From sequence record SRR22947727_1908: a stretch of DNA of 35,782 nucleotides; one strand, given 5' to 3'. Under the pieces are notes generated by a model. The model did not search any database and was not told where the DNA came from. It saw nothing but the letters and a program-made list of their open reading frames with translations. Numbering within the stretch: position 1 is the stretch's first letter; every line of letters starts with the position of its first letter. Shown here one piece after another: positions 10,628 to 35,782 of the stretch. A program made the position numbers and the translations under genes.

Positions 10628-12019
10628 ATGGACAAAAACTCAACAGAGGCTGAAAGCACAAGTATTGCAGAAAATTTTGCCAACTGGGCACTTGATGAAG
10701 CTACTGCTTTACCGCACACAAGTAATCAAATTATAGCGCGCATGACATATGACGCTGTGGGTTTGATGTACGCTGCTCGCAACGAGGATTATATTCTTTC
10801 GGTCAAAGAATCAGCGATTGAAAAAGGCGGTTGCCGGGCTGTTGGCCATAAAACTAAATTAGGGTTGTATGACAGCTGTTTGGTAAATGGAACAGCAATA
10901 CACGGAGAAGATTTTGATGACACTTACGAGGGCACACCTGTTCACTTAGCCGCATCTTTGGTTCCACCAATGATTGCTCTCAGTAGTATATGTCAAATCG
11001 ACCGTCATGATTGGGTAAGATCAATTTCTCTAGCTGCTGAACTCATTTGTCGACTTGTAGTTGTTGCACCGACTGCAATTCACCGGCAAGGATTTCATCC
11101 AACGGGTGTATTAGGTGCTTTTGGCGCTACTGCGGTTGCAGGAGTCTGTCTCCAATTGCAGCCTAAACAACTGGCTAGTGCTCTTGGTATTGTGGGAAGT
11201 ATGACGTCTGGCATCATTGAGTATCTTGCTGAGGGAACTTGGACAAAACGCATGCATCCAGGCTGGGCTGCAGCTAGTGGTCTCAAGGCAGCTCTTATGG
11301 CAAGAAATGGCTTTCTTGGACCCAGAACAGTTTTTGAGGGAGAACATGGTTTCTTTAAGGCTTTTGCCGACCCTTCAATAAAACAGGATTTATCAGTTTT
11401 GGACAACTGGGGTAGATCTTGGCATTTTGACCAAGTTGCTTTTAAACCTTTCGCGTGTGGAACAATGACGCAGCCGTTTATTGATTGTGCGATAAGTGCA
11501 CGTGGTAAGGTTGACATTAAAGACGTTGAAAAGATTGTGGCTCATATAGGTGAGGGAACTGTCCATAGGTTATGGGAGCCCTTAGACGAAAAGCGTCGGC
11601 CTTCAACACCATATGGTGCAAAGTTTTCTGTCCCTTATTGCGTAGCCGTTGGCATGGTTTTTGGTGATGCTGGGCTTTTACAATTTACCGAAAAAACTCT
11701 TGCTGATGATCGAGTGATTGAGCTTGCGCATCGGGTTTCGTACAGAATAAACCCTGAGGACCCATACCCTAGAGACTATGTCGGCTGGTTAGAAGTCCAC
11801 ACAAGGTCTGGGGTTGTTCACCATTTCAAACAGCCCTGCATGCGTGGTGGAAAAAACCAGCCCATGACCGACTCAGAAATAAAATCCAAATTTATTGCTA
11901 ACTGCACATATGGTCGGTTAAAGCACGAGGAAGCGTCACTCGCTTTTGAGTCGCTTGAGTTATTCTTCAGCAGCCCAGACTCAAATGCAGACAGGCTTTT
12001 CTCTGAATTGCCAGTGTAA
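10628..12019 (+). CDS. MmgE/PrpD family protein (paralogue A)
   Basis: Contains NGTAIHGEDFDDTYEGTPVH, GFHPTG, TKRMHPGWAA, FEG.HG, KPFACG and AKFSVPY. Confidence 0.9.
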   Translation: MDKNSTEAESTSIAENFANWALDEATALPHTSNQIIARMTYDAVGLMYAARNEDYILSVKESAIEKGGCRAVGHKTKLGLYDSCLVNGTAIHGEDFDDTYEGTPVHLAASLVPPMIALSSICQIDRHDWVRSISLAAELICRLVVVAPTAIHRQGFHPTGVLGAFGATAVAGVCLQLQPKQLASALGIVGSMTSGIIEYLAEGTWTKRMHPGWAAASGLKAALMARNGFLGPRTVFEGEHGFFKAFADPSIKQDLSVLDNWGRSWHFDQVAFKPFACGTMTQPFIDCAISARGKVDIKDVEKIVAHIGEGTVHRLWEPLDEKRRPSTPYGAKFSVPYCVAVGMVFGDAGLLQFTEKTLADDRVIELAHRVSYRINPEDPYPRDYVGWLEVHTRSGVVHHFKQPCMRGGKNQPMTDSEIKSKFIANCTYGRLKHEEASLAFESLELFFSSPDSNADRLFSELPV

Positions 12020-12105
12020 AAAGTAGTTTGAAGAATTCGGCTATCCATACACTTATTAAAAAGTGCAAGCCAACTATCATGAATAAATAGTGATCTTAAT
12101 CCAGT

Positions 12106-12864
12106 TTAATATTGCATCACCACACCACCATTGATCTGGAGCATTTGACCGTTAACGAAGCCACCATTTTCTGAGCACAAGTAAGCGATCATTCCACCAA
12201 TATCACTGGGCTTGCCCAAACGTCCTGACGGATTGTCTTTCAATAGTTTCTGATAATTTTTATTAGGCTCAGGATTATCCATATCGGCGCCGTCCGGTGG
12301 AAAAGTGCCTGGAGAAATAATATTCGACGTTATACCACTAGGTCCAAACTCAACTGCAAGGGCCTTCGTCAGCCCCCAAAGGGCATGTTTTGAGACTGAG
12401 ACGAAGCCTGCACCTGGGTAACCCCTTTGCGCATTCATGCCGGTAAAATGGATCACGCGTCCCCAGCCTTTTTTTACCATGAAAGGCAAAGCTGCACGCG
12501 CAAGCCAAATTGGTCCGTTCATATTCACGTTAATCACATTTTGCCATTCATTGTTCTCTATTTCTAGAAATGGCCCGTGAGGTCTAATGGCCGCATTATT
12601 GACAAGAATATCTATGCTCCCAAAAGCATCTACAGCTTTGTTGATGATTAGTTCTGCCTCTTGTTTGACACCTATATTGCCCATTGCTACAGACGCGTCC
12701 ACACCAAGTGCACGCACCTCTTCTGCCACTGCCTCTGCCGCGTTAAGATTTGTGCTGCCATTTACGACGATATTGTGACCAGCTTTGGCCAGTTCATGCG
12801 CAATTCCTCGACCTATGTTTTTACCTGACCCGGTGATAAGTGCTGTTTTTCTGCCCTGTGCCAT
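12106..12864 (-). CDS. SDR family oxidoreductase lacking the canonical catalytic Tyr
   Basis: Contains TGSGKNIG, DILVNNAA, ISPG, GRLG.P.DI and VNGQ.LQINGG; YxxxK appears as VSVSK. Start moved to ATG 12864 with GGAG upstream. Confidence 0.88.
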   Translation of the reverse strand: MAQGRKTALITGSGKNIGRGIAHELAKAGHNIVVNGSTNLNAAEAVAEEVRALGVDASVAMGNIGVKQEAELIINKAVDAFGSIDILVNNAAIRPHGPFLEIENNEWQNVINVNMNGPIWLARAALPFMVKKGWGRVIHFTGMNAQRGYPGAGFVSVSKHALWGLTKALAVEFGPSGITSNIISPGTFPPDGADMDNPEPNKNYQKLLKDNPSGRLGKPSDIGGMIAYLCSENGGFVNGQMLQINGGVVMQY

Positions 12865-13259
12865 CGTGAACTCCAAAAAATAGCCGTTTGATATAAAATT
12901 ATATTCTATTTCATTTTTGTAAAGTTTTACGTGCTCGATAGATCCTTCTTGCTCAGAAAAACCAGGGGCCAGACGGCAGTTTTGACAATGGTATTAAGAG
13001 TTGACTTTTTGACAACTACGGCAAGTTACATTTAACGATTTATGGCTAATTGAAGTCTGAACAGGCTCATTAATCAGCCTGCCCAATGCCAACACCAAAT
13101 TTATAGCAAAGTTGAAACCAATCCCGCCCAATACGACAACATTAATTGAGAGTATAAGGCGTCATTATCATTTAGTTGATAGAAACACGTATTGATTACC
13201 CAAAGGTCTTTTTGCGGCAGCTCCAATCAAGTTGTATGGAGAATTTATTAAGTATTGGG

Positions 13260-14156
13260 TCAATCAGAAATGGGAACTGTACTTTTAACAATAGTTTTAT
13301 CGAGCTCTTCATATTGGTGATAATCAATCACATCATAAAGTTCACTTCGTGTCATCATTTGCTCTTTGAATTGTGACGCTGAGCCGTTTTGTAGCAGGCT
13401 TTTGTAAAAACCTTTCATCGTGGCAGCGGCAACGCGCAACGCTGAAACGGGGTATATAACCAACTCAAAGCCCAATTTTGTCCATTCTTCCATGGATGTT
13501 TCGGGGGTGATACCAAATTCGGTCATGTTGGCTAAAAGCGGTCCCTCAACTTGCTCTCTGACCATTTGCATGTCTAATGTTGATCCAAGTGCCTCAACGA
13601 AGATGATGTCCGCCCCAGCTTTCCGATAGGCAACTGCACGTTTGATTGCTTCATCAATTGAAAGCTGCCCTGCGTCTGTCCTTGCGCACACCAATGTTTT
13701 CTTTACTGATGCTTTACAAGCAACAATCTTACGACACATATCTTCCACTGATATAAGCCGTTTATCATTCAAATGGCCGCATTTTTTTGGCATTTCTTGA
13801 TCTTCAATCTGAATTGCGGCAACACCCATGCTGTCAAGTGTTTGTGACAGCGTCATTAAATTCAAGATTTCTCCGTATCCGGTATCACAGTCCACGATTA
13901 ATGGTAAATTCGATGATCTTAGAATACCCCTAACAGCATAAATGAGTTCATCTGAAGTCATCACGCCGAGGTCTGGTAGCGCTAGCGAGGCTGATAAAGC
14001 TGCTCCAGATAAATAGAGAACCTTAAAACCCGCATCTTTTGCGAGTTTGGCAGAAAGTGGGTTATAGACGCCTGCTACTGACAAGCTGGCTTTTTGGGTC
14101 ATCGCTTGCGTAAGTGTTGCGGCATGATTGACGTCATTTACTTGAGATAGATACAT
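13260..14156 (-). CDS. prpB: 2-methylisocitrate lyase-like protein (PrpB/MmgF type)
   Basis: Contains LYLSGAA..ASL.LPDLG, VDCDTGYG, IEDQ.MPKKCGHLNDK, ARTDA, LANMTEFG.TP, YPVS.LR and M.TR.ELY..I.Y..YE.LD. Confidence 0.8.
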   Translation of the reverse strand: MYLSQVNDVNHAATLTQAMTQKASLSVAGVYNPLSAKLAKDAGFKVLYLSGAALSASLALPDLGVMTSDELIYAVRGILRSSNLPLIVDCDTGYGEILNLMTLSQTLDSMGVAAIQIEDQEMPKKCGHLNDKRLISVEDMCRKIVACKASVKKTLVCARTDAGQLSIDEAIKRAVAYRKAGADIIFVEALGSTLDMQMVREQVEGPLLANMTEFGITPETSMEEWTKLGFELVIYPVSALRVAAATMKGFYKSLLQNGSASQFKEQMMTRSELYDVIDYHQYEELDKTIVKSTVPISD

Positions 14157-14188
14157 TCTTCGAGCCTTATTTTCTTAATGGATGCTTG

Positions 14189-15559
14189 TCAGGTACCTCT
14201 AGTGAGGCTCATTAGGTTTGCTATGTCTGGCAGGTCTTCGAACCTCCATATTGCCTCGACGATAGCCTCAGGCTTTGAGCTCAGGCGCTTTCCGCTTGCA
14301 TTAGCTAAAAATTTCTCAACGAGAAAATCTGATGAGACGGGGTTTTTCGTTGTTCCAAGGGCATGCTCAACGTTGACAGTCTCAATATTACCATTTTTAT
14401 ATTTTACGCGAACTTCGCACTGATCTTTTCGAAAGTCATCTTTGGGAACTGGGTTGATTTTTTGGCGAAGCGACGAAACATCTGGAGCGACTGCTCGTGC
14501 GTCAGAATATTGGGATAGACCGGCGTGGCGGTCAATATAGCCTACAGCAGCTGAATGCTTCAGGCTGAATTTTGATTTTAGTCCGGTTTGTGGGTCTTCA
14601 ACGCCTGTAATTGTAATGGTGTGAGGGTGTATGAGGGCATCGACACTCTCAATCTCATCATGTGGAATATTAGTGTTTTTGCTTGCTGTAATCATGGCAT
14701 CAATCAATGGGTGTTGAACTATCCCGCAAGCATATGGCTTGTACCCATTTGTTAGAATAGCCCAATTGCTGCCCAGATTTTTTGTCAAAAAATCATAATT
14801 TTGAGTCTTACTGTAGATTTTTGAAAAACCCTTCCGTCCTTCGACAATTTCATCAGAGCTGTCATATCCTGAGCTGGCCATTAAGGCTGCTAGAATACCA
14901 TTGGAAGCGGCTCTGCCGGCGTGAAAGGATTTGGACATGGTGCCCCGGTTTTGTTGCATGCCCGCCGCTTGAGTGGCTGAAAATCCAAGTGCAAAAGTAG
15001 TTTTTTCAGCGTCGAGCTTCAGCAAAGATGCGGATGCCACACCGGCAGCAATAGTGCCGAGTGTGCCCGTCAAATGCCAGCCGCCATCGTGATGGTCCGG
15101 AGCTGTTTGGCCAACCCGAACCCCTGCTTCAAACCCAAGCGTGTAAGCGAGAATGATGTCCTGTCCAGTTTTTTTCTTGTTTTCGCCCAGTCCCAAAATG
15201 GCGGCAAGAACCGGGGAACTAGTATGAAGAACCACGCCCCCCATATGTGTGTCATCATAATCATAAAAGTGACCCATTTGACCATTTACTAGCGCTGCCT
15301 CGAGCGGTCCAAACTCGCCTTTTTGGCCAATCACTGACGCACCTGTTTTTGAGGAAAACTCTGATAGTGTCTCGATAAATTTTCCAATTCTGGGATTGTC
15401 GCTAGCGGCAATCGCACAGCCCATCCAATCAAGAATGCCCCGTTTCGCTTCTTCAACCACCTCTCGGGGTAGATCGGTAAATTTCAAGTTCGAGCAGAAC
15501 GAAGAGAACTCACGTGTTAAACCCAATTCAAGGGGTGCTACGCCATACTTAACTGACAT
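14189..15559 (-). CDS. MmgE/PrpD family protein (paralogue B)
   Basis: Contains NGQMGHFYDYDDTHMGGVVLH, GWHLTG, KSFHAG, KPYACGIVQH and SKFS. RBS GGAG; overlaps the DUF4387 stop. Confidence 0.9.
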   Translation of the reverse strand: MSVKYGVAPLELGLTREFSSFCSNLKFTDLPREVVEEAKRGILDWMGCAIAASDNPRIGKFIETLSEFSSKTGASVIGQKGEFGPLEAALVNGQMGHFYDYDDTHMGGVVLHTSSPVLAAILGLGENKKKTGQDIILAYTLGFEAGVRVGQTAPDHHDGGWHLTGTLGTIAAGVASASLLKLDAEKTTFALGFSATQAAGMQQNRGTMSKSFHAGRAASNGILAALMASSGYDSSDEIVEGRKGFSKIYSKTQNYDFLTKNLGSNWAILTNGYKPYACGIVQHPLIDAMITASKNTNIPHDEIESVDALIHPHTITITGVEDPQTGLKSKFSLKHSAAVGYIDRHAGLSQYSDARAVAPDVSSLRQKINPVPKDDFRKDQCEVRVKYKNGNIETVNVEHALGTTKNPVSSDFLVEKFLANASGKRLSSKPEAIVEAIWRFEDLPDIANLMSLTRGT

Positions 15560-15863
15560 CGATTATCTCCAAATCAAGAATGGGAGCATATTGTTGCCCT
15601 CCGTGGTTATCAGGGTCTCCCAAGTCTCCCTGTGATACAGCCCTTGGGAAAGATATTTTTATCGTGGAAATCAAAGGTATTGCAAACGTATCAATTTTTT
15701 CTGATGCAATACCGTAAATATCAGCGACATTTTTTGCACTCAAAATATTTTGATCAAGACACTTATTGAACATTTCTGAGTTTTTGAACATCACATCGAT
15801 TGTGACAACGAAAGGCCCCGCATTTTTGCTTCTGATGAGCTTCGTGCAATCTCGCAATTTCAA
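15549..15863 (-). CDS. DUF4387 family small protein
   Basis: Contains L.D....IRSKNAGPF..TID.MF, IKISFPR....G..GD.D.HG.QQYAP. TTGA overlap with the upstream gene. Confidence 0.85.
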   Translation of the reverse strand: MKLRDCTKLIRSKNAGPFVVTIDVMFKNSEMFNKCLDQNILSAKNVADIYGIASEKIDTFAIPLISTIKISFPRAVSQGDLGDPDNHGGQQYAPILDLEIIDVS

Positions 15864-17251
15864 TTGATTTCAGTCCCGTTCATAATGGTTACAAAGCGGC
15901 AAGGGAAAAAGTCGAGTGGATTTGAAGTCTCCATCAAGCTATCGCCTGCGAATTTATAAACTTTACCTCTCTCCAAAAAAGGAGGGCTGTGCCGACAGGC
16001 GACGCCAGTGATCAGGCCGCTCCATTCAGGTATTGGCAAATGCAAAGCCTGATGCCGCGCTAATGAAATAATGGTATTTGAAATTTCTTGGGTATCAGAT
16101 GTGATTTCCAAAACTAGACCAATTTCATGGCTTGTAATTTTTTTGACTGGCTCAAGGTCACCCATTACAGCGTCTTTACCATAAATAGCGATGTTAAAAT
16201 GGTAGGTCGGTGAGTCTTTGCCATAAACGTCGTGCACCCTGGATTTTAACCGTTTTTTTAGTCTCCCTGCCCAATCATCAATCTGACCAATGATCATTGG
16301 ATCGCGGATACCGCCAATGATTACGCTCTGGTAACCTAGGAACACAGCTCCTTCGAGTTTTGCATTTTTAACGGTTTTAGGCTTAAAGGAACTATTGGTA
16401 ACCCTGACACGTCGAGAGCTAACCGCTTGATAGTGAGACTTTGCAATATTAAGGACACCATCGGGCTCAATCAATTCAAACGGATTAGCATTTTCATAAA
16501 GGCTATGTGCCGCAACGCTTTGTGGTGTGCAGATCATTTCTCCAGAAAGCGGTTCAACCTCGAAAGCTGTTTTTTCGAGTTCAGCAAAAAGACAGTCGGG
16601 AGAGGATCGAGTCTCGGCCGCAGCAGCGCCGCATTCGAGAATTTTCGCAGCGTGCCACGCAACAGCGGGATCAATGCCTCTCATTATTGGTAGGGCTGCA
16701 TAAATCGCGCAGTCGCTTGAGCGGCCAGCGATAACAATGTCAGCTTTCTGATCAAGTGCATAGACAAAGGGATCGGCGCCCATCATCCCGACGATCCTCT
16801 CGGATGCTTGAATAGCCTCGTAATCAAGGCCAGGATACGAAATTGGTGTTATTTTACCCCTGTTCCATAGCTCCGTGAGTGTTGATTTGTCTTGCTCAGC
16901 ATCGATGAGTGCGAGCTTAAAAGACATTTCATTTTCAGACGCAATTTCTAGTGTAATTTCTTTTAAGCTTTCGACATGGGGGCGTCCTCCGGCTGTGCCC
17001 GCAGACCCGATAATCAAGGGAATATTGGCAGATCTTGCAGCTTTCATCAACAGAGAGAGGTCTCGCTTCACTGCGACTTTAGGGAAAGCGGTCTTGCCAG
17101 CTCCGAGGTAGTAGGGCCCCGGGTCGGTGGAGCCCGCATCACATCCAATGAAGTCTGGGCCCAACGCCATGCCACGCAAAAGAGAGCTCTCGCGAAACCC
17201 AGACCCCAAAACACCATTTCCCGCAATGGCTTTTACTCTTAAACCGCTCAT
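15860..17251 (-). CDS. Acyclic terpene utilisation AtuA-family (DUF1446-like) protein
   Basis: Contains G.LG.GF, D.GSTDPGPYYLG.G, IPLIIGSAG.AG, AGRSSD, WH..KILECGA, SVAAH.LYE and G.RDP..I.QID. Confidence 0.82.
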   Translation of the reverse strand: MSGLRVKAIAGNGVLGSGFRESSLLRGMALGPDFIGCDAGSTDPGPYYLGAGKTAFPKVAVKRDLSLLMKAARSANIPLIIGSAGTAGGRPHVESLKEITLEIASENEMSFKLALIDAEQDKSTLTELWNRGKITPISYPGLDYEAIQASERIVGMMGADPFVYALDQKADIVIAGRSSDCAIYAALPIMRGIDPAVAWHAAKILECGAAAAETRSSPDCLFAELEKTAFEVEPLSGEMICTPQSVAAHSLYENANPFELIEPDGVLNIAKSHYQAVSSRRVRVTNSSFKPKTVKNAKLEGAVFLGYQSVIIGGIRDPMIIGQIDDWAGRLKKRLKSRVHDVYGKDSPTYHFNIAIYGKDAVMGDLEPVKKITSHEIGLVLEITSDTQEISNTIISLARHQALHLPIPEWSGLITGVACRHSPPFLERGKVYKFAGDSLMETSNPLDFFPCRFVTIMNGTEIN

Positions 17252-17285
17252 TTAGGTGTTTTTTCCAGTCTTTTTGCCGAATCCG

Positions 17286-17849
17286 TTACCCAAAAAACTG
17301 GTCATCAGCATAGACTGGTGGCTTGAATTTATTTTTCTTTGATCCGCCCGGCAGCGGTAAGCCATCGTTACCAACGCGGTCCCTCAAGTCACCAGAGTGT
17401 GCCCTGGAACCTACCCTCAGTAAAACCAGAGGTTCTTCACTAGTGCAGGTGAAGTTGTATAACGTGCCGGCGGGCAACATAATTCCTTCGTTTGAACCGA
17501 TTTCTTTTTTCTCCTCATTTGGACCGTGGAAGACAGCTTTGCCTTGCAGGATCACAAACATATGGTCTTCATTATTATGGGCGTGTAATGTATTCTCACC
17601 ACCTGACGCGTATACCTTAATCCAGGCCCATAAGTTCTCTGTTTCCGCCAATGGGTTTATGCTTCGTCCATCTGTGACCAGTTGGGTTCTCATGGAAAAA
17701 AATTGAGGTTTTTTGTCTTCACAAAGGGGACTAAACTTCCCCATTTGCCGGCCTGGAACCTCGTCAACACCGTACCTTTGCCGCATGCCACGATAATCGT
17801 CGGATATAACCTCTCCTGAGGTGCCATTATTGGATGATGTTGTGCTCAT
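17286..17849 (-). CDS. Cupin domain protein
   Basis: Contains KVYASGGENTLHAHNNEDHMF.ILQG and MLPAGTLYNF. RBS AGGAGG upstream. Confidence 0.85.
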   Translation of the reverse strand: MSTTSSNNGTSGEVISDDYRGMRQRYGVDEVPGRQMGKFSPLCEDKKPQFFSMRTQLVTDGRSINPLAETENLWAWIKVYASGGENTLHAHNNEDHMFVILQGKAVFHGPNEEKKEIGSNEGIMLPAGTLYNFTCTSEEPLVLLRVGSRAHSGDLRDRVGNDGLPLPGGSKKNKFKPPVYADDQFFG

Positions 17850-17929
17850 GTGAACCTCCTGTGCTAACCAGAAACAAACAAATTCATTTTTCTCAACCCA
17901 TGCTATTTAGTCATGGATTGGGCATTTCG

Positions 17930-18829: not shown

Positions 18830-18844
18830 TCAACAATTTCCATA

Positions 18845-18887: not shown

Positions 18888-18946
18888 TTATTATTTTATC
18901 CATAGTCTCGTTGAAGAAAGGGTAAAAGTTTGAAGGGAGAGAAGTC

Positions 18947-28339: not shown

Positions 28340-29860
28340 TTATTGATTTGCCCCCATGAATTCAACAGCGCTGGAGCCAGCGATACGCCCAAAAGTTGCC
28401 CCTGACATTAGGCCAGTTCCACTGGCGTAGTTGTGATAAAAAAGACCTCCAACCATTTCCCCTGCTGCAAAAAGTCCTGGGATCAATCCACCAAAAATAT
28501 TCTCCACCTGTGCTTTTGTTGTGACCTTTACTCCCCCGAAGGTGAAAGTTACGCCAGTAGTAACGTGATAGGCATGAAAAGGAGGTGTATCTATCGGACA
28601 AGCCCAGTTTGTTTTATCAATGGTGAGGCCATGAGTGGCTTTTCCGTCTAAAACATTTGGATTGAATTGGGCAGAAGTGTCACAGGCTTCATTAAATGCT
28701 TTTATTGTTTGCAGAAACTTGCGTGGGTTCACGCCGTCCAATTTTTCGGCCAGTTCTTCAAGAGAATTTGCTTCAGCCTTAGTGGTTCGCCTGATAAAAT
28801 ACTCACTTCGCAGAAGAGAGGTGGATTTAGCATCAAATATTTGCCACGCCTGCATTCCAGGTTGCTTTAGGATTTCACCCCCATACTTTGCATAGGTGTG
28901 ACTATGGAAATTTAGTCCCTCATCGACATATCTCTCGCCGTCTAGATTTACAATTACCCCATAGGGATAATTATGTTTCTGAAATTGATCGCCAATTGAT
29001 AGGTCGCCATATGGAGGTGCGTTAACATCCCAAGCTACAGAGTGGCAGCCCGACCAGTTGCCATAAGGCATAGCTCCGGCGGCAAGTGCCATATTAAGGC
29101 CGGCACCCATATTGTATTTTGTGCCGCGAACCTTTGCTAGGTCCCATCCAGGCCCCAGGTATCTTGCCCGCATTTCTGGGTTTGACTCAAAACTTCCGCA
29201 TGCAAGTATAACTGCCTTGCAGTTTAGGTCGAACGATTGCTGTTTATGAGATGCTTTTATTCCCGTAACCCTCTGGTCTTGCATCAGCAACTGATTGACA
29301 GGCGTTTCGTAAGCAATGGCAATTTCCAGTTTTTCAGCTGTTGCGTAGAGCGCTTTCAATAATTCCGGGCCACCGCCCCATATGTGGAGCGCGAGACCAC
29401 CCCAAAATTTAAATTTTCCGTCAATTTTGTATGCCTGCCTGCCAAGACCGGGTTGTAGCTTAACTCCTCTTTCGGAAATCCATTTTGCGCTAGCGTGACT
29501 ATTCCTGATCAATGTTTCACACAGATCTGCGTCCGTTCTGTATTGAGTTAGTTCGAACATATCATCAAAATATTGATCAACGCTATAGCTTCCAAAATCG
29601 ATGTTTTTTAACTCCTCTGGCGAAATGTCTGGGTAGATATCCAGGATATCATCGACACCAGAGTAAGCAAATCGGAAAGCTCCGCCGGTAAAATGTGAGT
29701 TTCCTCCTTTTTCATTCTCAGGCGCTGCCTCACAAATTAACACCTTGGCACCTTTTTCTCTTGCAGAAATAGCGGCGCATAAAGCTGCGTTACCAGCACC
29801 CACCACAATGATGTCGGGGTTATAACTTAGGATTTCGCTAAGGTCGTTCAATTGTGGCAT
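28340..29860 (-). CDS. tcuA: TcuA-like FAD-dependent tricarballylate dehydrogenase family flavoprotein
   Basis: Contains VVGAGNAALCAA..A, GGNS.FTGGAFR, GRQA.K.DG...FWGG, WD.AKVRG, YP.G..VN..G.R..DEG, G.TFTFGG and GLF..NY.SG.GL.SG..FGRIAG. Start moved to ATG 29860. Confidence 0.8.
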   Translation of the reverse strand: MPQLNDLSEILSYNPDIIVVGAGNAALCAAISAREKGAKVLICEAAPENEKGGNSHFTGGAFRFAYSGVDDILDIYPDISPEELKNIDFGSYSVDQYFDDMFELTQYRTDADLCETLIRNSHASAKWISERGVKLQPGLGRQAYKIDGKFKFWGGLALHIWGGGPELLKALYATAEKLEIAIAYETPVNQLLMQDQRVTGIKASHKQQSFDLNCKAVILACGSFESNPEMRARYLGPGWDLAKVRGTKYNMGAGLNMALAAGAMPYGNWSGCHSVAWDVNAPPYGDLSIGDQFQKHNYPYGVIVNLDGERYVDEGLNFHSHTYAKYGGEILKQPGMQAWQIFDAKSTSLLRSEYFIRRTTKAEANSLEELAEKLDGVNPRKFLQTIKAFNEACDTSAQFNPNVLDGKATHGLTIDKTNWACPIDTPPFHAYHVTTGVTFTFGGVKVTTKAQVENIFGGLIPGLFAAGEMVGGLFYHNYASGTGLMSGATFGRIAGSSAVEFMGANQ

Positions 29861-31223
29861 TTTCGATAAACTCCGATAAGTGCTGGATGTCAGAAACATC
29901 TTGGAAATTTTGAAGCTTGTTTGCTAACTCAACTTCGCTGCCACGCGCTAAAACCCCAACGCAACAATCATAGAACTTATTTATGAGTGCGTTTTCTGGT
30001 AACGGGTGGTTCTTATCACGGCCTACAGGCGCGTCTACAAATTTTTGTAAATTTCTCCCATCTTTTGTCGTGATAGTCAATTCTGCGTAGTAAACATTCT
30101 TTTCATTTGGTTTCGATTCTGGGTGGGGTTCTGCTCTGATGTTGGTGGCCAGAAATTGTTGTATTTCCGGTTCATTAACTGCATTATCTGAAAAATCAGA
30201 CAAGGAAATCTTTCCATTTTGTAATGCACGACTGACCACGTATTGTACGGAAAACTTGCCATCAAAACCTGTTTTTACCTCTGGTCGATCAGTATGTTTA
30301 AGTCGCCGTGGGTGCGTCCATGAGAGCACTGACTGGATATCGCTCAATTGCAAATCATGTTCTCTTTTGAGCGCGATCGCAGCATCAACAGCGGGGTGGG
30401 TACTGCCACAGCAGGGGTGAAGCTTAACCGCAATTCCAGGTTCAACAATTTCGAAGGGGTCGCCCCAAGCTTCGAGCAAACGGTCGGGGTCATAATTACC
30501 TCGCCCATTGTAAACTTCAAAAAATCCCTGCTGCCCCTCCAGTGCAACGGAACCGGCTGTCAAGCCTGCGTCTGCCATTCGAACAGCGAGCAGGCCATTT
30601 CTTGTGCAATGGCCAACGTGGTATGGTTTAGTATATGTGCCAAAGTTAGCTTTTATACCAGAAGCCATGGAAGCTGCGATTGCAATTGCGGTCGCGGTTT
30701 TGTCAACGTCTAAGTTTTGCAATCGAGCGTTTGCCGCTACAGCACCAAAAATTCCGAGAGTGGTGGTGGGGTGCCACCCTTTTTCATAATGGTGGAAATT
30801 TAACACTTTCGCCATTGCACAAATAGTCTCGACGCCTACTGTATAGGCCTCAATAACATCCCGTCCATTAGCGTGCATGCTTTCGCTGTTTGCTAGAAGA
30901 CCAGCTAAAATTGGCACGGTAGGATGACCGCCCATGGTGTTGTTACAATCATCAAAATCAAGCGCATGCGACGACGTGCCATTTATCATGGCGGCATCGA
31001 GCATGCTTACCTTGAGTTTTTTTCCATAGATAAGAGCGCCATCTCTAGTGTTCTTCGCTTCAAGCGCTTTAATGACAGATTGTGTTGCCTCACTTTTTGA
31101 TCCAATGAGGGTAACGCCAACTGTGTCCAGCAGAGCGGAATTTGCTGATTCAATGATCCTTTGATCTGCAACGTCTACCTTAGAATTTATGATGCGGTCA
31201 GCTAGAATGTAGGATAAAGACAA
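29838..31223 (-). CDS. MmgE/PrpD family protein (paralogue E; iminodisuccinate-epimerase-like His/Tyr pair)
   Basis: Contains NGTSSHALDFDDCNNTMGGHP, HHYEKGWHPT, KPYHVG, KLHPCCGSTH and GKFSVQY. TTG start; overlaps the tcuA start by 23 nt. Confidence 0.9.
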   Translation of the reverse strand: MSLSYILADRIINSKVDVADQRIIESANSALLDTVGVTLIGSKSEATQSVIKALEAKNTRDGALIYGKKLKVSMLDAAMINGTSSHALDFDDCNNTMGGHPTVPILAGLLANSESMHANGRDVIEAYTVGVETICAMAKVLNFHHYEKGWHPTTTLGIFGAVAANARLQNLDVDKTATAIAIAASMASGIKANFGTYTKPYHVGHCTRNGLLAVRMADAGLTAGSVALEGQQGFFEVYNGRGNYDPDRLLEAWGDPFEIVEPGIAVKLHPCCGSTHPAVDAAIALKREHDLQLSDIQSVLSWTHPRRLKHTDRPEVKTGFDGKFSVQYVVSRALQNGKISLSDFSDNAVNEPEIQQFLATNIRAEPHPESKPNEKNVYYAELTITTKDGRNLQKFVDAPVGRDKNHPLPENALINKFYDCCVGVLARGSEVELANKLQNFQDVSDIQHLSEFIENATIERP

Positions 31224-31339: not shown

Positions 31340-32737
31340 ATGGGTCACGCTGGAGGTATCGGAAATCCCTACTCAATGGGTATTGCAAATTTTGTTTCCA
31401 GCTTCGATCTCCTGAATGTTCCGGATAATGTCAAACATAGAGCAAAACTCTTGTTTCTAGACAGTATTGGTTGCGGCCTTTATGGAGCACGTCTGGAGTG
31501 GACACGGAAGTTGATTGCAGCCATCACAAAAGTTGATCAGACCAAAAGCTGTTCATTATTAGCTGGTCTGGAGAAGATGGGGCCACTGCACGCAGCACTT
31601 GTAAATGGAACGCAAATCCAGGGATTTGAATTAGATGATGTCCATCGAAAGGGTGTGCTGCATGTTGGCGCTGTTACCTTGCCGCCACTTTTCGCGTTGG
31701 CAGAACTGAAGCCTGAGATCACTGGCAATGATTTTTTGCGAGCGGCTATCGCGGGTTATGAAATAGGGCCTCGAGTTGGCTTGTGTATGGGGCAAGAACA
31801 TATTGGCCAAGGTTGGCATTCCGGCGCGACAGTTGGTGTTTTTTCTGCAGTTGCCGGCGCTTCGAATCTATTGAAATTGACAGCTGAGGAAACATTGCAT
31901 GCAATCGGTATAGCTGGAACCCAATCGTCTGGTTTGATGGCGGCCCAATTTGGTGCAATGGTCAAGCGTATGCATGCTGGTAAATCTGCTCACAGTGGCT
32001 TGCTTGCGGCGTTGCTTGCAAAAGAGGGCTTTACAGGTATCGTGGATGTCTTTGAGGCGCCATATGGTGGATTTTGTTCAACATTTTCTCGATCGGAGGA
32101 TCGTTTCGATCTTGAACAATTAGTTGCAGGTCTTGGGGAAGAGTACCAACTAATGAATATCGCGTTGAAGTTCTATTCTTGTGTTGGCTCGAATCATACG
32201 ACCCTAGATGCGATAAAAGACATACAGAAACGGCGCCCATTTTCTGTGGATGACTTCAAAGAAATACGAGTTTTTGGTTCGCGAGTAACAGTCGATCATG
32301 TTGGTTGGGACTATCGACCAGAAGGTCTTACGTCTGCTCAATTAAACTTGCCTTTTTGCGTCGCAACACTACTTTTGGAGGGTGATGTTTTCGTAGACCA
32401 GTTCACTTCAGATTGTGTGGGTGATCCAGCTAGAATTGAGCTGTCTCGGAGAATTAAGGTGATCCACGACCCAAACATTACGAAAAGAGGTTCTGGATAT
32501 CGGCATATGGTCAGGGTCGAAGTTGAGTTTGAAAATGGTGATCTTGAGAGTGAAACAAGGGAGTACCCACGAGGTAGTGAATACGACTTTGCAAGTGATG
32601 AGGAAATCATAAGTAAATTTAGAACATTGGCGAAAAGCTCGATCAGTGACACGTCAGTAAAAAATATAGTCGACATGGTAATGAATATCGAGGCGCTGGG
32701 ATCTGCCGATCTGTTATTGGCAGAGATGTCGGGGTAA
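31340..32737 (+). CDS. MmgE/PrpD family protein (paralogue F)
   Basis: Contains NGTQIQGFELDDVHRKGVLH, GWHSG, KRMHAG, KFYSCVGSNH and AQLNLPF. RBS GGAGG. Confidence 0.9.
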   Translation: MGHAGGIGNPYSMGIANFVSSFDLLNVPDNVKHRAKLLFLDSIGCGLYGARLEWTRKLIAAITKVDQTKSCSLLAGLEKMGPLHAALVNGTQIQGFELDDVHRKGVLHVGAVTLPPLFALAELKPEITGNDFLRAAIAGYEIGPRVGLCMGQEHIGQGWHSGATVGVFSAVAGASNLLKLTAEETLHAIGIAGTQSSGLMAAQFGAMVKRMHAGKSAHSGLLAALLAKEGFTGIVDVFEAPYGGFCSTFSRSEDRFDLEQLVAGLGEEYQLMNIALKFYSCVGSNHTTLDAIKDIQKRRPFSVDDFKEIRVFGSRVTVDHVGWDYRPEGLTSAQLNLPFCVATLLLEGDVFVDQFTSDCVGDPARIELSRRIKVIHDPNITKRGSGYRHMVRVEVEFENGDLESETREYPRGSEYDFASDEEIISKFRTLAKSSISDTSVKNIVDMVMNIEALGSADLLLAEMSG

Positions 32738-32743: not shown

Positions 32744-33637
32744 GTGGCCCTCGAATCAAAGTCATTACTGAAGTTGCTCTGTGAGAGAAAAATCACAATT
32801 TTTCCAGGTGTCTATGATGGGTACAGTGCGCGGCTTGTTTCTGCAAGTGGCTTTGAAACAGCAACAATTTCAGGCGCTGGCTTGTCAGAGTCCCGTCTCG
32901 GATGGGCAGACCGAGGTATATTAACCTTCAAAGATAACCTAAACGCTTGTGCAGAGATCGCGTCATGTTGTGATCTAAAATTAGTGGCTGATGCAGATAC
33001 TGGATACGGAAACGCAGTAAATGTTCATTTTACTGTAAAGGCTTTCGAAAGGGCCGGTGTCCATTGTCTTTCTATTGAGGACCAAGTTTTTCCAAAAAGA
33101 TGTGGGCACATGTCTGGCAAAAGACTGATTTCTTTGTCAGAGGCGAAAGATAAAATAAAAGCAGCTGTTGATGCTAGAATGTCAGATGAATTTCTGATTC
33201 GCGCACGTACTGATGCCGCAAATATTGATGGGGTAAATGCGGCTGTTGATCGTTTGGGGGAGTACATTGAATGCGGTGCGGATTGCGTTTTTGCTGACGC
33301 TCTCCATAATATAGACGATATCAAGACTATCGCGAGTGCTGCTGCAAAGCCGTTGTTTGTCAACATGGGGTTTGGCCTTCGTAAGCGCTCCACAACCCCC
33401 TTAATCAGCCCAACTGAACTTGAGTCCATAGGGGTTAAGGCAGTTTCATATCCTCGCCTTCTCACCTCAGCAGCAGTTAGGGGAATGCGTCTAGCAATTG
33501 ATGCTTTCAATAGTGATGTCGTTGGCAAGGGGCTAACGGTGGATCGGCCCGATCTCGCCGTTGATTTTGATGAGTTGAATGAGCTAGTTGGCCTGGATTT
33601 TCTCTCCTCTCTCGAAGAGCGTTTTGTCAAAGATTAA
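32744..33637 (+). CDS. Isocitrate lyase/PEP mutase family lyase (dimethylmalate lyase/PrpB-like)
   Basis: Contains PGVYDG.SAR, ISGAG, DADTGYGNAVNV, IEDQVFPKRCGHMSGK, ARTDA and VNMG. GTG start 6 nt after paralogue F. Confidence 0.88.
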   Translation: MALESKSLLKLLCERKITIFPGVYDGYSARLVSASGFETATISGAGLSESRLGWADRGILTFKDNLNACAEIASCCDLKLVADADTGYGNAVNVHFTVKAFERAGVHCLSIEDQVFPKRCGHMSGKRLISLSEAKDKIKAAVDARMSDEFLIRARTDAANIDGVNAAVDRLGEYIECGADCVFADALHNIDDIKTIASAAAKPLFVNMGFGLRKRSTTPLISPTELESIGVKAVSYPRLLTSAAVRGMRLAIDAFNSDVVGKGLTVDRPDLAVDFDELNELVGLDFLSSLEERFVKD

Positions 33638-33659
33638 TGAAAAGAAAAGGTTTAGAATC

Positions 33660-35021
33660 GTGTCTGATCCGATTTTGATTGAAGAAAAATTATATGACTA
33701 TATTTTTGCAGCGCCTCATCAAGAATTACCTGAAAAAATTGAGTCTAAAACTAGGGTGCATCTATTAGACACATTAGTTGCAATAATTTCCGGCACGACC
33801 CTGTTACCGGGAAAGGTTGCGACTAATTTTGTTGGATCCATACCGTCTAAACCTACGTGCACTCTAATCGGCACCCCAAAAAAGGTGGGTGTCTTCGAAG
33901 CTGCTTTGGTCAATGGGATGATCGCGCACGCGGATGAGACAGATGACAGTCATCTGGCAGGGCGGTTCCACCCGGGCTGCGCTATAGTTCCCGCAGCTAT
34001 TGCTGCTGCAGAAACCGCTAATGCGAGCTCTGAGGTTTTGCTGCGGGCTATAGCTCTGGGTTATGAGATTGGGGCGCGATGTAATATGGCGCTCGGTGTC
34101 CGCGACCCCAGCAAGGCTAAGTTTTCTACGCATTGCTTTGGCGGTTTGTTCGGAGCTGCAGCGTCATCATCTGCTTGTTTGGGCCTTGAACGCGAAGAAA
34201 TCAATAGCCTGATGTCATTTACCGTCCAGCAAGCGTCAGGTTTGCCGTATTGGAACAGAGATCCCGATCACATTGAAAAGGCTTTTGTTTTTGGAGGAAA
34301 AGGAGCGCGGGACGGCTTGTACTCGGCTTTTTTTGCCAAGTCGAAAATGACTTCACCACCTAATCCTTTCACGGGGAAACGAGGTTTGTTTGCTTGTTTT
34401 GCTGAAGATCCCGAGCCGGAAAAGTTGACAGACCGATTAGGCGATGTTTTTGAAATTGACAATGCATCAATTAAGAAGTGGTGTGTTGGATCTCCGATGC
34501 AATCTGTTTTGGACGCTCTGGAAACCATTGCATCTAAGCAAAGCTTTGATCCTGATTTTATTGAAAAGATCAGTTTAACCATGCCGTCAGACCGTATACA
34601 CATTGTTGATAACGCGTCTATGCCAACTGTTTGTCTTCAGCATTTAGTGGCGTTGATGATTTTTACAGGTGACTGTAAGTTTGCGGATGCGCATGATGAG
34701 TCTCTGATGACTAATCCTGGAATTTTGAAAATTCGGGAGAAAATTGAGGTCATAAAATCTGATGCTCTCGCCAGAGCAAAGCCAGCGCGGCAATCCATTG
34801 TAAATATCAAGCTCTCGAATGGTGATGAATTGAGCCATCATGCAAAAGTTGTGCATGGAACCCCGCAAAGGCCGATGAATAGGGAAGATGTGGCCAAGAA
34901 AACTACTTCTATTCTCAGTTCAGTCTCGAATAAGGATTTCTCTCAGTTATTAGATATTTGTCTGGAGCAGAAAAAGTTTAGCATAGCGGAGTTGCTGAAA
35001 AGCTGTGAGATAGCACATTGA
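33660..35021 (+). CDS. MmgE/PrpD family protein (paralogue G, most divergent)
   Basis: Contains NGMIAHADETDDSHLAGRFHPG, FSTHCFGG, HIEKAFVFGG, IKKWCVGSPMQ and GTP.RPM. Start moved to GTG 33660. Confidence 0.88.
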   Translation: MSDPILIEEKLYDYIFAAPHQELPEKIESKTRVHLLDTLVAIISGTTLLPGKVATNFVGSIPSKPTCTLIGTPKKVGVFEAALVNGMIAHADETDDSHLAGRFHPGCAIVPAAIAAAETANASSEVLLRAIALGYEIGARCNMALGVRDPSKAKFSTHCFGGLFGAAASSSACLGLEREEINSLMSFTVQQASGLPYWNRDPDHIEKAFVFGGKGARDGLYSAFFAKSKMTSPPNPFTGKRGLFACFAEDPEPEKLTDRLGDVFEIDNASIKKWCVGSPMQSVLDALETIASKQSFDPDFIEKISLTMPSDRIHIVDNASMPTVCLQHLVALMIFTGDCKFADAHDESLMTNPGILKIREKIEVIKSDALARAKPARQSIVNIKLSNGDELSHHAKVVHGTPQRPMNREDVAKKTTSILSSVSNKDFSQLLDICLEQKKFSIAELLKSCEIAH

Positions 35022-35092
35022 TCAATATTGAGTTTGGTATCCCTAGTGCTTTCCTGATCACAGTTCGGTGTAAATTTTAGAAAGAAATAACA

Positions 35093-35782
35093 ATGACACT
35101 TGAATTGTTGATCATACCAGTCGCAGCATTTGTGGCTGCGGTTATAAGTGGTTTGGGTGGCTTTGGTGGGGCATTAATTTTGGTCATAATCCTCACTCCT
35201 ATTGTCGGTGTAAAGGCTGTGATACCTCTAATTTCGGTATTCGCAACGTGCAATAATTTGAGCCGCGTTTTTATTTATCGGAAATCGATTGTATGGAAAA
35301 CTGCAGCTCAATTCACGGCAGCGTCAATACCCGGAGTCTATTTTGGCGCAAAGATTTTGGATTGGTTGCCAGAGAGAGCGTTGCTCTTCGTGCTTGGATT
35401 GACATTGTTGGGCGCAATTCCTTTGGGCCGCTATTTGAAAAAAAGTGAGTTCACCTCCGGAGTGAAAACAATTGTTGCTTTTGGAGCTGTGTTTGGTCTT
35501 GTTAGTGGTGCAACCGCAGGAACAGGAATGTTTGTCATAGCTGGCCTCAATAGTGCTGGCTTGCGTGGCCCTGTTCTTTTGGGAACTGATGCTGTTATAG
35601 GTTTTTTCAATGGAACTATGCGAGCGAGCGTTTATTCAGCACTTGGGTTGTTAACCCCACAGATGATTATATCTGGTCTAATGATGGGCGCTCTTACGGT
35701 TCCCGGAAACTGGGTAGCTAGCAAGATCGTAAGTAGAATGGGTGATAATATCCATGCAAAATTGATCGAGGCACTTATTGCG
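35093..35782 (+). CDS. Sulfite exporter TauE/SafE family membrane protein, 3'-truncated by the window edge (absent from the ORF track)
   Basis: ATG 35093 opens a frame running to the window end: MTLELLIIPVAAFVAAVISGLGGFGGALIL...SIPGVYFGA...FGLVSGATAGTG...LLGTDAVIG. Confidence 0.82.
   Translation, partial: MTLELLIIPVAAFVAAVISGLGGFGGALILVIILTPIVGVKAVIPLISVFATCNNLSRVFIYRKSIVWKTAAQFTAASIPGVYFGAKILDWLPERALLFVLGLTLLGAIPLGRYLKKSEFTSGVKTIVAFGAVFGLVSGATAGTGMFVIAGLNSAGLRGPVLLGTDAVIGFFNGTMRASVYSALGLLTPQMIISGLMMGALTVPGNWVASKIVSRMGDNIHAKLIEALIA

Follow-up and report, generated by a model that had tools for sequence, protein, structure and literature searches.

Several described systems resemble parts of the locus analysed here, an island of 21 genes at positions 10628-35782 of sequence record SRR22947727_1908. 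Seven of the 21 encode proteins of the MmgE/PrpD family (M1 to M7), and the whole stretch of 35,782 nucleotides is referred to as the window. Passages of one study describe five known activities in this family, the fifth found in 2025, and mostly uncharacterised homologues, 50,344 in 21,713 species or about 2.3 per carrier genome (PMC12290011). According to the same passages, characterised members of the branch that contains iminodisuccinate (IDS) epimerase and cis-aconitate decarboxylase (CAD) act by an enolate mechanism on free acids with a 1,4-dicarboxylate core (2-substituted succinates), and methylsuccinate isomerase is inactive on methylsuccinyl-coenzyme A (CoA). The itaconate/methylsuccinate cluster of Pseudomonas aeruginosa and Cupriavidus necator, composed of Ict, Ich, Ccl, Mcd and an (S)-(R)-methylsuccinate isomerase, thus uses a MmgE/PrpD protein outside the PrpD branch on a free 2-substituted succinate, as we infer for the island. 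Its isomerase lets both stereoisomers enter the dehydrogenation, hydration and lyase steps leading to pyruvate and a C2 unit, and it has a LysR regulator, as the island does (passages of PMC12290011 and PMC13491972). However, the cluster as described in these passages has a single MmgE/PrpD gene and works on CoA esters, with a CoA transferase, an acyl-CoA dehydrogenase and a citramalyl-CoA lyase, whereas the island has seven MmgE/PrpD genes, no CoA enzyme, a TcuA-like protein in the place of Mcd and free-acid lyases in the place of Ccl, in a comparison of gene content.

Other known systems share single features with the island. The combination of a MmgE/PrpD-fold enzyme with a lyase of the isocitrate lyase (ICL)/PrpB family, familiar from prpBCDE, occurs in it twice (M2 with ICL1; M6 and M7 with ICL2), but none of the seven paralogues is assigned to PrpD, neither lyase reaches the PrpB cut-off, and the island has no synthase and no ligase. 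With tcuRABC of Salmonella enterica it shares a flavin adenine dinucleotide (FAD)-dependent enzyme of the TcuA family close to organic-acid uptake genes. Unlike that operon, it has neither TcuB nor TcuC, and its TcuA-like protein misses the TIGR02485 cut-off and is always paired with M5. The IDS epimerase of Agrobacterium tumefaciens BY6 (2hp0/2hp3) is the closest solved relative of M1, M3, M4, M5 and M7; the C-N lyase of the IDS pathway is absent from the island, and scores of 77-211 bits point to different subfamilies. SAR11 bacteria, which are likewise marine oligotrophic alphaproteobacteria, carry flexible islands with the tripartite tricarboxylate transporter (TTT) paralogues Tct-7 and Tct-8 and multiple prpD genes, noted but not characterised in passages of PMC11796062. 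These differ in carrying prpF and malate dehydrogenase genes and are read there as methylcitrate uptake loci; the same passages do not mention lyases, AtuA, TauD or PGA_cap.

The host of the window is assigned to SAR116 (Puniceispirillales). We favour, tentatively and with somewhat less than even confidence, the reading that the locus is a conserved accessory catabolic island for the degradation of a family of 2-substituted succinates, that is, branched C5-C7 di- and tricarboxylates. The candidate substrate types are most likely methylsuccinate, mesaconate, citramalate, aconitate and tricarballylate, and possibly hetero-substituted acids.

Evidence for this reading begins with the paralogues themselves. 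The 28 non-overlapping long open reading frames (ORFs) of the window were scanned with Pfam at curated cut-offs and with NCBIfam equivalogs. Both MmgE/PrpD domains are present in seven of the 28, within 24.4 kb, in agreement with the seven full-length genes of the original prediction; in view of about 2.3 family members per carrier genome (PMC12290011, in the passages cited above), seven in 24 kb is far above expectation. The proteins are 442-477 amino acids (aa) long with zero internal stops, and all seven pass the Pfam cut-off of 32.1 bits in both domains (168-234 bits for MmgE_PrpD_N, 75-116 bits for MmgE_PrpD_C). They share 22-30% pairwise identity, with the exception of M1/M3 (43%), and their alignment has 14 invariant columns. 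A profile built from the seven scores 258-293 bits against Bacillus subtilis 'IRG1', IDS epimerase and cis-aconitate decarboxylases, versus 91-117 bits against PrpD structures, and searches with single paralogues agree for each of M1-M7. Thus, all seven are placed in the IDS-epimerase/CAD/IRG1 branch and not with PrpD. The highest single score against a characterised enzyme is that of M5 against IDS epimerase 2hp3 (210.9 bits), the others reaching 77-141 bits; single scores span 41-147 bits for CAD and 77-211 bits for IDS epimerase, enzymes for neither of which a curated model exists. Against the NCBIfam PrpD equivalogs, which have cut-offs of 458 (TIGR02330), 575 (NF006943) and 950 bits (NF042438), the paralogues reach 25-50 bits at best, with M7 unmatched. 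Six paralogues are 20-24% identical to Escherichia coli PrpD, and M3 is unmatched at 1e-3.

A phylogeny of the seven was made from 65 rows, namely the seven and 58 of the 67 MmgE/PrpD ORFs of related loci, nine partial or over-long ORFs being omitted; it is a quick IQ-TREE search with support from the Shimodaira-Hasegawa-like approximate likelihood-ratio test (SH-aLRT) only. M2, M4, M5, M6 and M7 each cluster with alphaproteobacterial proteins from outside SAR116 (SH-aLRT 95-100), from lineages that include Rhodospirillales, Hyphomicrobiaceae and Roseobacteraceae. M1 and M3 together form a clade confined to SAR116 in this tree (SH-aLRT 100). PrpD, added as a lone outgroup row, is set apart from the remaining 65 by a branch 2.13 changes per column long, which is a measure of distance and not of placement. 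The ratio of nonsynonymous to synonymous divergence (dN/dS) relative to the orthologues of the most similar locus, L001, is 0.06-0.33 for all 17 genes compared, M2-M6 among them (M1 and M7 are not in this set). Distinct old clades, retained active-site residues and low dN/dS suggest that M1-M7 are working, differentiated enzymes and not decaying duplicates.

The active-site residues support the same view of individual specificities. The set H85, D88, H99, H150, K198 and K266 of IDS epimerase, taken from passages of PMC12290011, was mapped onto the paralogues by HMMER alignment to that enzyme, and the resulting signature table covers 34 of the 65 tree rows. K198 and K266 are kept in 7/7 paralogues, as is an acidic residue at position 88 (Asp in M1, M2, M3 and M5; Glu in M4, M6 and M7). 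Each of the three histidines is replaced once: H85 by Gln in M6, H99 by Arg in M3 and H150 by Phe in M7. The full set is therefore kept in M1 (10628-12019, +), M2 (14189-15559, -) and M5 (29838-31223, -), the last of which has a Cys at the fifth motif position. The deviations are orthogroup-specific and common to orthologues in other genomes, for M4, M5 and M6 also outside SAR116. In M3 (19909-21285, +), the Arg at the catalytic His99 position is common to both SAR116 orthologues (L001, L002). M4 (27011-28339, +) has Glu for Asp88, D-N for D-D, and a Leu. M6 (31340-32737, +) belongs to a clade with SH-aLRT of 100 in which Gln replaces the first conserved His in all five tabulated rows. M7 (33588-35021, +), the most divergent of the seven, has the Phe together with a KAF(V/D)FG motif, both in the window and in locus L015; it has no NCBIfam match at E<=1e-5. 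Its subfamily has 437 representatives at E<=1e-30 in a library that carries neither context nor names, hence no clue to function. A TauE gene lies at most two genes away in 4/4 members of the closest M7 clade. The start codon of M7 is uncertain: the longest-ORF start, a TTG giving a 50-nucleotide (nt) overlap with ICL2, is probably too far upstream.

Gene order is the second line of evidence. A profile of the binding protein of the island and 21 homologues yielded 79 loci among species-representative genomes, each with at most 10 kb on either side. The best two, L001 and L002, stem from a single-cell genome of Candidatus Puniceispirillum and from a 'SAR116 cluster bacterium', respectively. The former matches the window in gene order from the end of M1 through M6, with proteins of 80-98% identity. 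In the latter, proteins are 50-89% identical and the order is kept from the gene of the short-chain dehydrogenase/reductase (SDR) to ICL2, even though the synonymous distance to the window is saturated, and not computable, for 13 of the 15 genes compared. The enolase gene is present in L001 and absent from L002, which has an extra TauE gene (1235-1993, -) between SDR and ICL1; no remnant of it is found in the corresponding 383-nt gap of the window (12877-13259; tblastn E>3, no ORF >66 aa). Outside SAR116, the richest match is the chromosome of a Rhodospirillales metagenome-assembled genome (MAG), L004, with homologues of the cupin (67%), TauD (74%), LysR, binding protein (46%), TctA (70%), PGA_cap (46%), M4 (45%), TcuA (79%), M5 (59%) and M6 (70%), within which the locus ends. 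Seven of them (binding protein, TctA, PGA_cap, M4, TcuA, M5 and M6) keep the order and strands of the window, while cupin, TauD and LysR have moved. Two side features of L004 are a gene of the flavin mononucleotide (FMN)-dependent 2-hydroxy-acid dehydrogenase family between the binding-protein gene and TctA (11154-12467, +), and a three-domain rhodanese with a major facilitator superfamily (MFS) transporter upstream (1851-3452, +), the rhodanese being 5 kb away.

Smaller subsets recur elsewhere. L026 has M6 (partial, at the edge), M5, TcuA, binding protein, TctA and the first part of an AtuA gene; L003, L005 and L015 combine the transporter with TauE and a M7-type gene; and L005 and L006 have an M2 orthologue (52-53%) with LysR and the transporter. 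M4 orthologues are also found in L008 and L009 (38-39%), and whole-length M6 orthologues (58-70%) in nine loci outside SAR116. Apart from L001-L006, L015 and L026, eight loci contain subsets of an M6 orthologue (58-61%), transporter, a M7-like gene, another MmgE/PrpD gene and PGA_cap. With a hidden Markov model of the seven, at least one MmgE/PrpD ORF is detected in 33 of the 79 loci, at least two in 18 and at least three in 11, a total of 67 in 1.28 Mb (the two of one locus are fragments of a single gene). The array is thus not a chance mosaic, a possibility left open by the original prediction: order is kept in L001 and in the saturated L002, seven genes keep order and strand in L004, and three more recur there. 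Plasmids were less informative, since the best match of M6 among 705 records (tblastn, 41%), in a Variovorax context, shares only TTT binding proteins and LysR with the island.

The third line of evidence concerns carbon-carbon bond cleavage. The AtuA-like protein (15860-17251, -) and the DUF4387 protein (15549-15863, -; Pfam DUF4387 101.8 bits) are encoded by genes overlapping by 4 nt, in an operon that opens with a Cupin_2 protein (17286-17849, -; Pfam Cupin_2 36 bits) and continues with M2, which overlaps DUF4387 by 11 nt, and ICL1 as the final gene. The AlphaFold (AF2) model of the AtuA-like protein, made from 30 sequences, has a predicted local distance difference test score (pLDDT) of 84.9 and a predicted template-modelling score (pTM) of 0.82. 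Foldseek matches the model to 9evf_A (E 3e-51, TM 0.87/0.88, 461 aligned columns, 36% identity), an entry released in October 2025 under the title 'Citramalate lyase - ADP - pyruvate complex'; the next match has an E of 3e-3. The family is large and well conserved: it has no fewer than 5,694 members at E<=1e-20, with identities of 53-59% for many. In E. coli O157:H7 Sakai, the AtuA-like protein corresponds to ECs_0760 (456 aa, 40% identity, E 2e-107) and the DUF4387 protein to ECs_0759 (105 aa, 32% identity, E 1e-19), a pair encoded downstream of glutamate mutase E and methylaspartase genes, with a 4-nt overlap as in the window. A DUF1446 gene was noted in the methylaspartate cluster, where the fate of (S)-citramalate was unknown as of 2015 (passages of PMC4682846). 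Passages of a 2026 preprint describe the use of a two-subunit citramalate lyase, 'cmlAB' of Raoultella planticola, for the direct conversion of citramalate into pyruvate and acetate (10.64898/2026.01.16.699985). We regard 9evf, Cml and the DUF1446/DUF4387 pair as presumably the same kind of enzyme. ECs_0760 and ECs_0759, the AtuA/DUF1446 and DUF4387 homologues, respectively, are then probably the two subunits of a citramalate lyase; the RefSeq labels at L081 46934-48618, '3-methylaspartate ammonia-lyase' for ECs_0760 and 'acyl-CoA synthetase' for ECs_0759, look wrong. By homology and by the modelled fold, the AtuA-like and DUF4387 proteins of the island are probably the large and small subunits of a CoA-independent 2-hydroxy-acid lyase of the citramalate type. 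The context of the pairs differs: the enterobacterial genes stand with glutamate mutase, methylaspartase and the mesaconase FumD, those of the island with a MmgE/PrpD gene and a PrpB-like lyase.

DUF4387 adjoins the AtuA-like gene in every locus examined, including E. coli O157, Diaphorobacter, Cupriavidus (two copies) and Klebsiella plasmids. In the Diaphorobacter plasmid, the pair is followed by a MmgE/PrpD gene. This gene is not an M2 orthologue (26% identity to M2, 30% to M3), so the pairing is conserved at the family level only. Neither does the Klebsiella plasmid pair belong to a methylaspartate cluster, its neighbours being aldehyde dehydrogenases and a class I fumarase; the same plasmid, pHNLC3 of Klebsiella pneumoniae, also carries annotated blaCTX-M-24 and fosA3 beside insertion sequence (IS) elements (L085 26-2725), and a few kb separate these from the metabolic genes. 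An atlas search with the AtuA-like protein and the cupin returned only the name of the former's own family and generic cupin clusters, and literature searches found no paper on DUF4387 and no primary paper on a CoA-independent citramalate lyase.

The two other lyases belong to the ICL/phosphoenolpyruvate (PEP)-mutase family, with Pfam PEP_mutase scores of 143.7 bits for ICL1 (13260-14156, -) and 153.9 bits for ICL2 (32744-33637, +). Both miss the cut-off of the prpB equivalog TIGR02317 (326.8 and 221.5 versus 354.4 bits) and are related to E. coli PrpB at 38.6% identity for ICL1 and 39% over 218 aa for ICL2. The sequence K(K/R)CGH is the catalytic-cysteine motif of PrpB/ICL-type lyases, and it is found as PKKCGH at residue 124 of ICL1 and as PKRCGH at residue 118 of ICL2, a protein 81% identical to its counterpart in L002. 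Since the AtuA/DUF4387 pair is a lyase homologue, the island would hold three C-C lyases. The two lyases predicted originally were thus found, but the count was too low; a further ICL-family gene, upstream of the island (1186-2094, -), lacks the motif. The homology to citramalate lyase speaks for small branched acids of the C5 type no less than for tri- or tetracarboxylates.

The TcuA-like dehydrogenase (28340-29899, -) passes one TcuA equivalog, NF006130 (563.9 versus 369 bits), and misses the other, TIGR02485 (281 versus 372.55 bits). M5 lies directly upstream of it, and the two genes are adjacent in 5/5 genomes that have M5 (window, L001, L002, L004 and L026). Homologues are 89% (L002), 79% (L004), 70% (L026) and 53% (L047) identical. 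The longest-ORF start, with a 62-nt overlap with M5, is probably too far upstream; an ATG occurs at codon 14, 13 codons downstream, and homologues are 507 aa long. In L047, a Hyphomicrobiaceae MAG, the homologue directly follows TctA and precedes genes for the large and small subunits of an aconitase-family enzyme and an ICL-family gene (13267-17630), with a gene of the arylmalonate-decarboxylase/maleate-isomerase family nearby, another tricarboxylate-type assortment.

All these enzymes are arranged around a single uptake system, most likely in about six transcription units. The divergent TctC/Bug-like periplasmic binding protein (21355-22455, +) scores 20.5 bits against Pfam TctC, under the cut-off of 27, and a profile of 22 homologues matches Bug/TctC structures with 35-58 bits (E 5e-15 to 5e-8). 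Relatives number 478 at E<=1e-3 among 7,998 candidates scored, and its 91%-identity cluster has 282 sequences. The permease TctA (22496-24514, +) has 672 aa, and its Pfam match (394 bits, residues 32-448) ends at residue 448, leaving a C-terminal tail of some 220 aa in which about four hydrophobic segments are found (residues 469-644); homologues in related loci are 633-678 aa long. No separate tctB gene is found in the window, and the C-terminal extension may replace TctB, which would make this a TTT subfamily with a fused TctB-like tail. Of the TctC/TctA-B transporter proposed at first, the permease therefore stands, but tctB does not exist as a separate gene and TctC falls under its cut-off. 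TauD, M3, the binding protein, TctA and the enolase gene follow one another on the plus strand, divergent from a LysR-type regulator (17930-18829, -; Pfam HTH_1 and LysR_substrate) that the original prediction had missed. LysR genes of 40-44% identity stand beside the binding-protein gene in L004, L006, L015 and L018. The remaining units are M1 alone at the left edge of the island; SDR (-); cupin, AtuA-like, DUF4387, M2 and ICL1 (-); PGA_cap (-), divergent from M4 (+); M5 and TcuA (-); and M6, ICL2, M7 and TauE (+), opened by M6. The operons were drawn from strand and gaps; a scan for promoters and terminators did not help in delimiting them (in 10000-29999, 40 promoter-like sites versus 30.0 +/- 5.1 in shuffles and 15 terminator-like sites versus 21.8 +/- 4.5).

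The accessory genes named in the original prediction are likewise all recovered by Pfam/NCBIfam. The TauD/TfdA-family Fe(II)/2-oxoglutarate dioxygenase (18947-19876, +; Pfam TauD 181.7 bits) misses the cut-off of the taurine dioxygenase equivalog NF007104 (145.6 versus 313 bits), which leaves a Pfam TauD/TfdA family assignment only; its homologues are found in L004 (74%), L006 (66%), and L069 and L071 (57%), and in L004 the cupin is near it. The mandelate racemase/muconate-lactonizing enzyme (MR/MLE) member of the enolase superfamily (24585-25700, +; Pfam MR_MLE_N and MR_MLE_C) has muconate cycloisomerase as its best NCBIfam match (187.7 bits, cut-off 335 missed) and is a variable member of the island. 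The PGA_cap protein (25829-26908, -; CapA-like, metallophosphatase fold, Pfam PGA_cap 165.9 bits) has homologues of 42-46% identity in nine further loci and is divergent from a MmgE/PrpD gene in each locus with strands read (L004, L006 and L072). The SDR-family oxidoreductase (12106-12876, -; Pfam adh_short_C2 176 bits, no NCBIfam equivalog cut-off reached) is 97% identical in L001 and 74% in L002. The TauE/SafE-family anion permease (35093-35782, +; Pfam TauE 82.4 bits) is cut by the window end, and its homologues adjoin M7-type genes in L003, L005 and L015.

Taken as a catabolic route for a family of 2-substituted succinates, the island would work as follows. The binding protein and the fused TctA would take up the acid. 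The MmgE/PrpD paralogues, each with its own specificity, would apply a common enolate chemistry to the 1,4-dicarboxylate core, inverting stereocentres, shifting double bonds, adding or removing water, or decarboxylating. The TcuA-like flavoprotein, paired with M5, would desaturate a substituted succinate to an ene-acid. 2-Hydroxy-acids would be split by the Cml-like AtuA/DUF4387 enzyme and the two PrpB-like lyases into pyruvate or glyoxylate and acetate, succinate or similar acids. For substituents that resist elimination, the TauD-like dioxygenase, the partner of M3, would open an oxidative route, and TauE would export an anionic by-product or move a substrate. The gene arrangement suggests partners for most paralogues: the TcuA-like protein for M5, the Cml-like lyase and ICL1 for M2, ICL2 and TauE for M6 and M7, the TauD-like protein and the transporter for M3, and PGA_cap for M4. 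A chain can serve as an illustration, in which a tricarballylate-type acid would be oxidised to aconitate (TcuA), decarboxylated to itaconate (CAD-like), isomerised to mesaconate or citraconate, hydrated to citramalate (hydratase) and cleaved to pyruvate and acetate (Cml-like). Since Pfam detects neither a CoA transferase nor a ligase nor an acyl-CoA dehydrogenase inside 10628-35782, the substrates would be processed as free acids. Substrates, the order of steps and CoA-independence are all predicted from this gene content. The general logic proposed originally, i.e. uptake, FAD-dependent desaturation, isomerisation/hydration/decarboxylation and C-C cleavage, fits the families found.

A more far-reaching version is possible but doubtful. 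Here the island would encode a CoA-free network based on an old radiation of the MmgE/PrpD fold, with five or more ancient specificities that feed a TcuB-independent dehydrogenase of the TcuA type and three free-acid lyases. Jointly with this, and at the same level of doubt, the specificities would comprise an epimerase, a double-bond isomerase, a hydratase and a decarboxylase, and the M7/TauE type would possibly be beta-eliminating, with release of sulfite or another anion.

Several observations weigh against the degradation of a substrate family. TcuA normally depends on TcuB, a membrane-bound Fe-S protein by which the flavin is reoxidised, and is accompanied by the transporter TcuC. Neither is found in the window or in the scanned surroundings of the TcuA homologues of L004, L026 and L047. 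A family III CoA-transferase (4429-5736) lies 5 kb upstream of the island, with weak homologues (25-37%) in 11 of 77 other loci, so that CoA chemistry may still play a part. None of the seven paralogues exceeds 211 bits against any characterised enzyme, and no solved TTT protein is more than a distant relative of the binding protein. With an identity of only 36-40% to relatives of citramalate lyase, the substrate of the AtuA-like enzyme may differ, for example another 2-alkylmalate. In the 77 loci other than L001 and L002, no whole-length counterpart of at least 40% identity to ICL1, ICL2, M1, M3, the enolase or the complete AtuA/DUF4387 pair stands beside the transporters, and the only AtuA in these loci is the partial one at the L026 edge; the island could therefore join unrelated functions. 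Locus counts are not independent, since the loci were chosen by homology to the transporter binding protein and several come from one genome. Finally, at the level of result listings, our literature search turned up no link of C5 branched acids to seawater or phytoplankton exudates.

Two alternative readings follow, which we consider equally improbable, though less so than those discussed after them. In the first, the island would encode a single linear route that degrades one tricarboxylate of the tricarballylate/aconitate type: TTT uptake, TcuA to aconitate, MmgE/PrpD enzymes to itaconate, citraconate/mesaconate and citramalate, and the Cml-like lyase to pyruvate and acetate, with the PrpB-like lyases acting on hydroxy-tricarboxylate side products. 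A single uptake system and regulator, a TcuA-like protein that passes one TcuA equivalog cut-off, a branch of MmgE/PrpD to which CAD chemistry is native, the citramalate-lyase homologue and the order of the whole array in L002, kept despite saturated synonymous sites, are all consistent with it. However, seven isomerase-type enzymes and three lyases exceed what such a pathway needs, TcuB is absent, no paralogue is near CAD (41-147 bits), and TauD, PGA_cap, SDR, cupin, enolase and TauE are left without a role. Moreover, the modules are found apart and in other combinations elsewhere. The single complex polycarboxylate originally proposed as one possible substrate is likewise not supported: modules recur in differing combinations outside SAR116, and the lyase operons, M1, M3 and the enolase are unmatched beside the related transporters of the 77 loci.

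The second of these readings builds on modularity. The locus would be a storage site of independent, unrelated cassettes of one or two enzymes in a flexible island, with an enzyme family and a taste for organic acids as their only common traits and no common pathway. Differing subsets do occur outside SAR116 (M7 with TauE, M5 with TcuA, M6 with a M7-like gene and PGA_cap, M2 with LysR), the enolase and the second TauE vary between SAR116 genomes, and the GC content at third codon positions (GC3) of the island is unlike that of flanking genes. Synonymous distance (dS) to L001 varies more than 10-fold among neighbouring genes in 12106-32737, from 0.035 (ICL1), 0.053 (SDR) and 0.062 (M2) to 0.32 (AtuA), 0.37 (binding protein) and 0.585 (DUF4387), suggesting recombination inside the island within the population. 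Similarly, passages of PMC11796062 report SAR11 TTT islands with several prpD genes in several cassette versions. Yet one transporter serves seven paralogues, the same blocks gather repeatedly around the same transporter subfamily across alphaproteobacterial lineages (L004, L026), and the window and L002 agree in gene order, with protein identities of 50-89%. It is the modular distribution outside SAR116 that makes us prefer a substrate family to either a single substrate or unrelated cassettes.

The catabolism of hetero-substituted succinates, especially sulfonated ones of the sulfosuccinate type, is distinctly unlikely. MmgE/PrpD enzymes would racemise the acid or eliminate the substituent, the TauD-like protein would hydroxylate the carbon that bears it, and TauE would export sulfite. 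This version stays alive through the recurring TauD and TauE and the rhodanese of L004: a TauD-family gene (57-74%) stands beside the transporter in four loci outside SAR116, TauE adjoins M7 and is within two genes in all members of its closest clade, and L002 has a second TauE. According to passages of PMC12262181, SAR116 is predicted to use sulfonates and oxidise sulfite. On the other hand, TauD and TauE are family names only (the TauD-like score of 145.6 bits is far from 313), sulfur genes, sulfite dehydrogenase included, are absent from the window, this version would not account for the lyases, TcuA and PGA_cap, and literature searches found no natural source of such compounds. A variant 2-methylcitrate cycle for propionate, or methylcitrate uptake, is extremely improbable, as the original prediction had held: automatic annotation often labels MmgE/PrpD proteins as 2-methylcitrate dehydratase, ICL1 comes near the PrpB cut-off and passages of PMC11796062 propose methylcitrate for the SAR11 islands, but the paralogues are remote from PrpD in bits, identity and branch length (a distance, not a placement), and no Pfam match to citrate synthase, AMP-binding ligase, aconitase or PrpF exists among the 28 ORFs, which confirms the reported absence of prpC, prpE, acnD and prpF.

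The novelty of the degradation of a substrate family, our preferred reading, would lie in an organic-acid catabolic cluster of known families in an undescribed and apparently CoA-free combination. Literature searches found no paper describing the cluster, none among the papers listed that combines SAR116 or Puniceispirillum with prpD or tricarboxylate terms, and nothing relevant linking tricarballylate/TcuA with MmgE and marine bacteria; a term search in a SAR116 ecophysiology paper gave no TTT, tricarboxylate, dicarboxylate or itaconate. The claim of an undescribed system holds to this extent, but part of the island maps onto a solved lyase, and SAR11 TTT islands with multiple prpD genes are known (passages of PMC11796062). 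With seven diverged members, conserved signatures and defined partners, the island is a compact test bed for new MmgE/PrpD activities. The AtuA/DUF4387-type lyase beside MmgE/PrpD genes, also in the Diaphorobacter plasmid, suggests a general CoA-free route for branched dicarboxylates. Close copies of the island proteins form clusters of 109-282 sequences in a protein collection; together with the SAR116 and other marine alphaproteobacterial carriers, this suggests that the substrates may matter for surface-ocean carbon flux. If the radiation of the fold is real, it would enable abundant surface-ocean bacteria, namely SAR116 and other marine alphaproteobacteria with the core block, to consume substituted succinates, a class not yet listed among marine bacterial substrates. 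If these are ordinary organic-acid cassettes, the gain is in annotation: the genes should not be named '2-methylcitrate dehydratase', 'methylisocitrate lyase' or 'acyclic terpene utilisation'.

Rfam at gathering thresholds gives zero matches in the window, and its two large intergenic gaps contain no ORF >66 aa. The seven genes located before 10.2 kb have a GC3 of 0.48-0.52, and the 21 genes after it all lie in the range 0.36-0.48. GC3 falls to 0.36 at M1, so that the left border of the island is also a compositional border. The seven genes on its left (1-10141) encode a ureidoglycine aminohydrolase, the PEP-mutase/ICL-family protein without the cysteine motif, a YghU-type glutathione S-transferase, a MFS transporter, the family III CoA-transferase, a CitMHS/TrkA-C transporter and a DUF3604-like protein. 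Some of their NCBIfam names look enterobacterial, but this proved misleading, as megablast of positions 1-10000 against E. coli genomes gave no match. Together, the ICL-like gene and those of the CoA-transferase and the CitMHS/TrkA-C transporter may make up an organic-acid module of their own.

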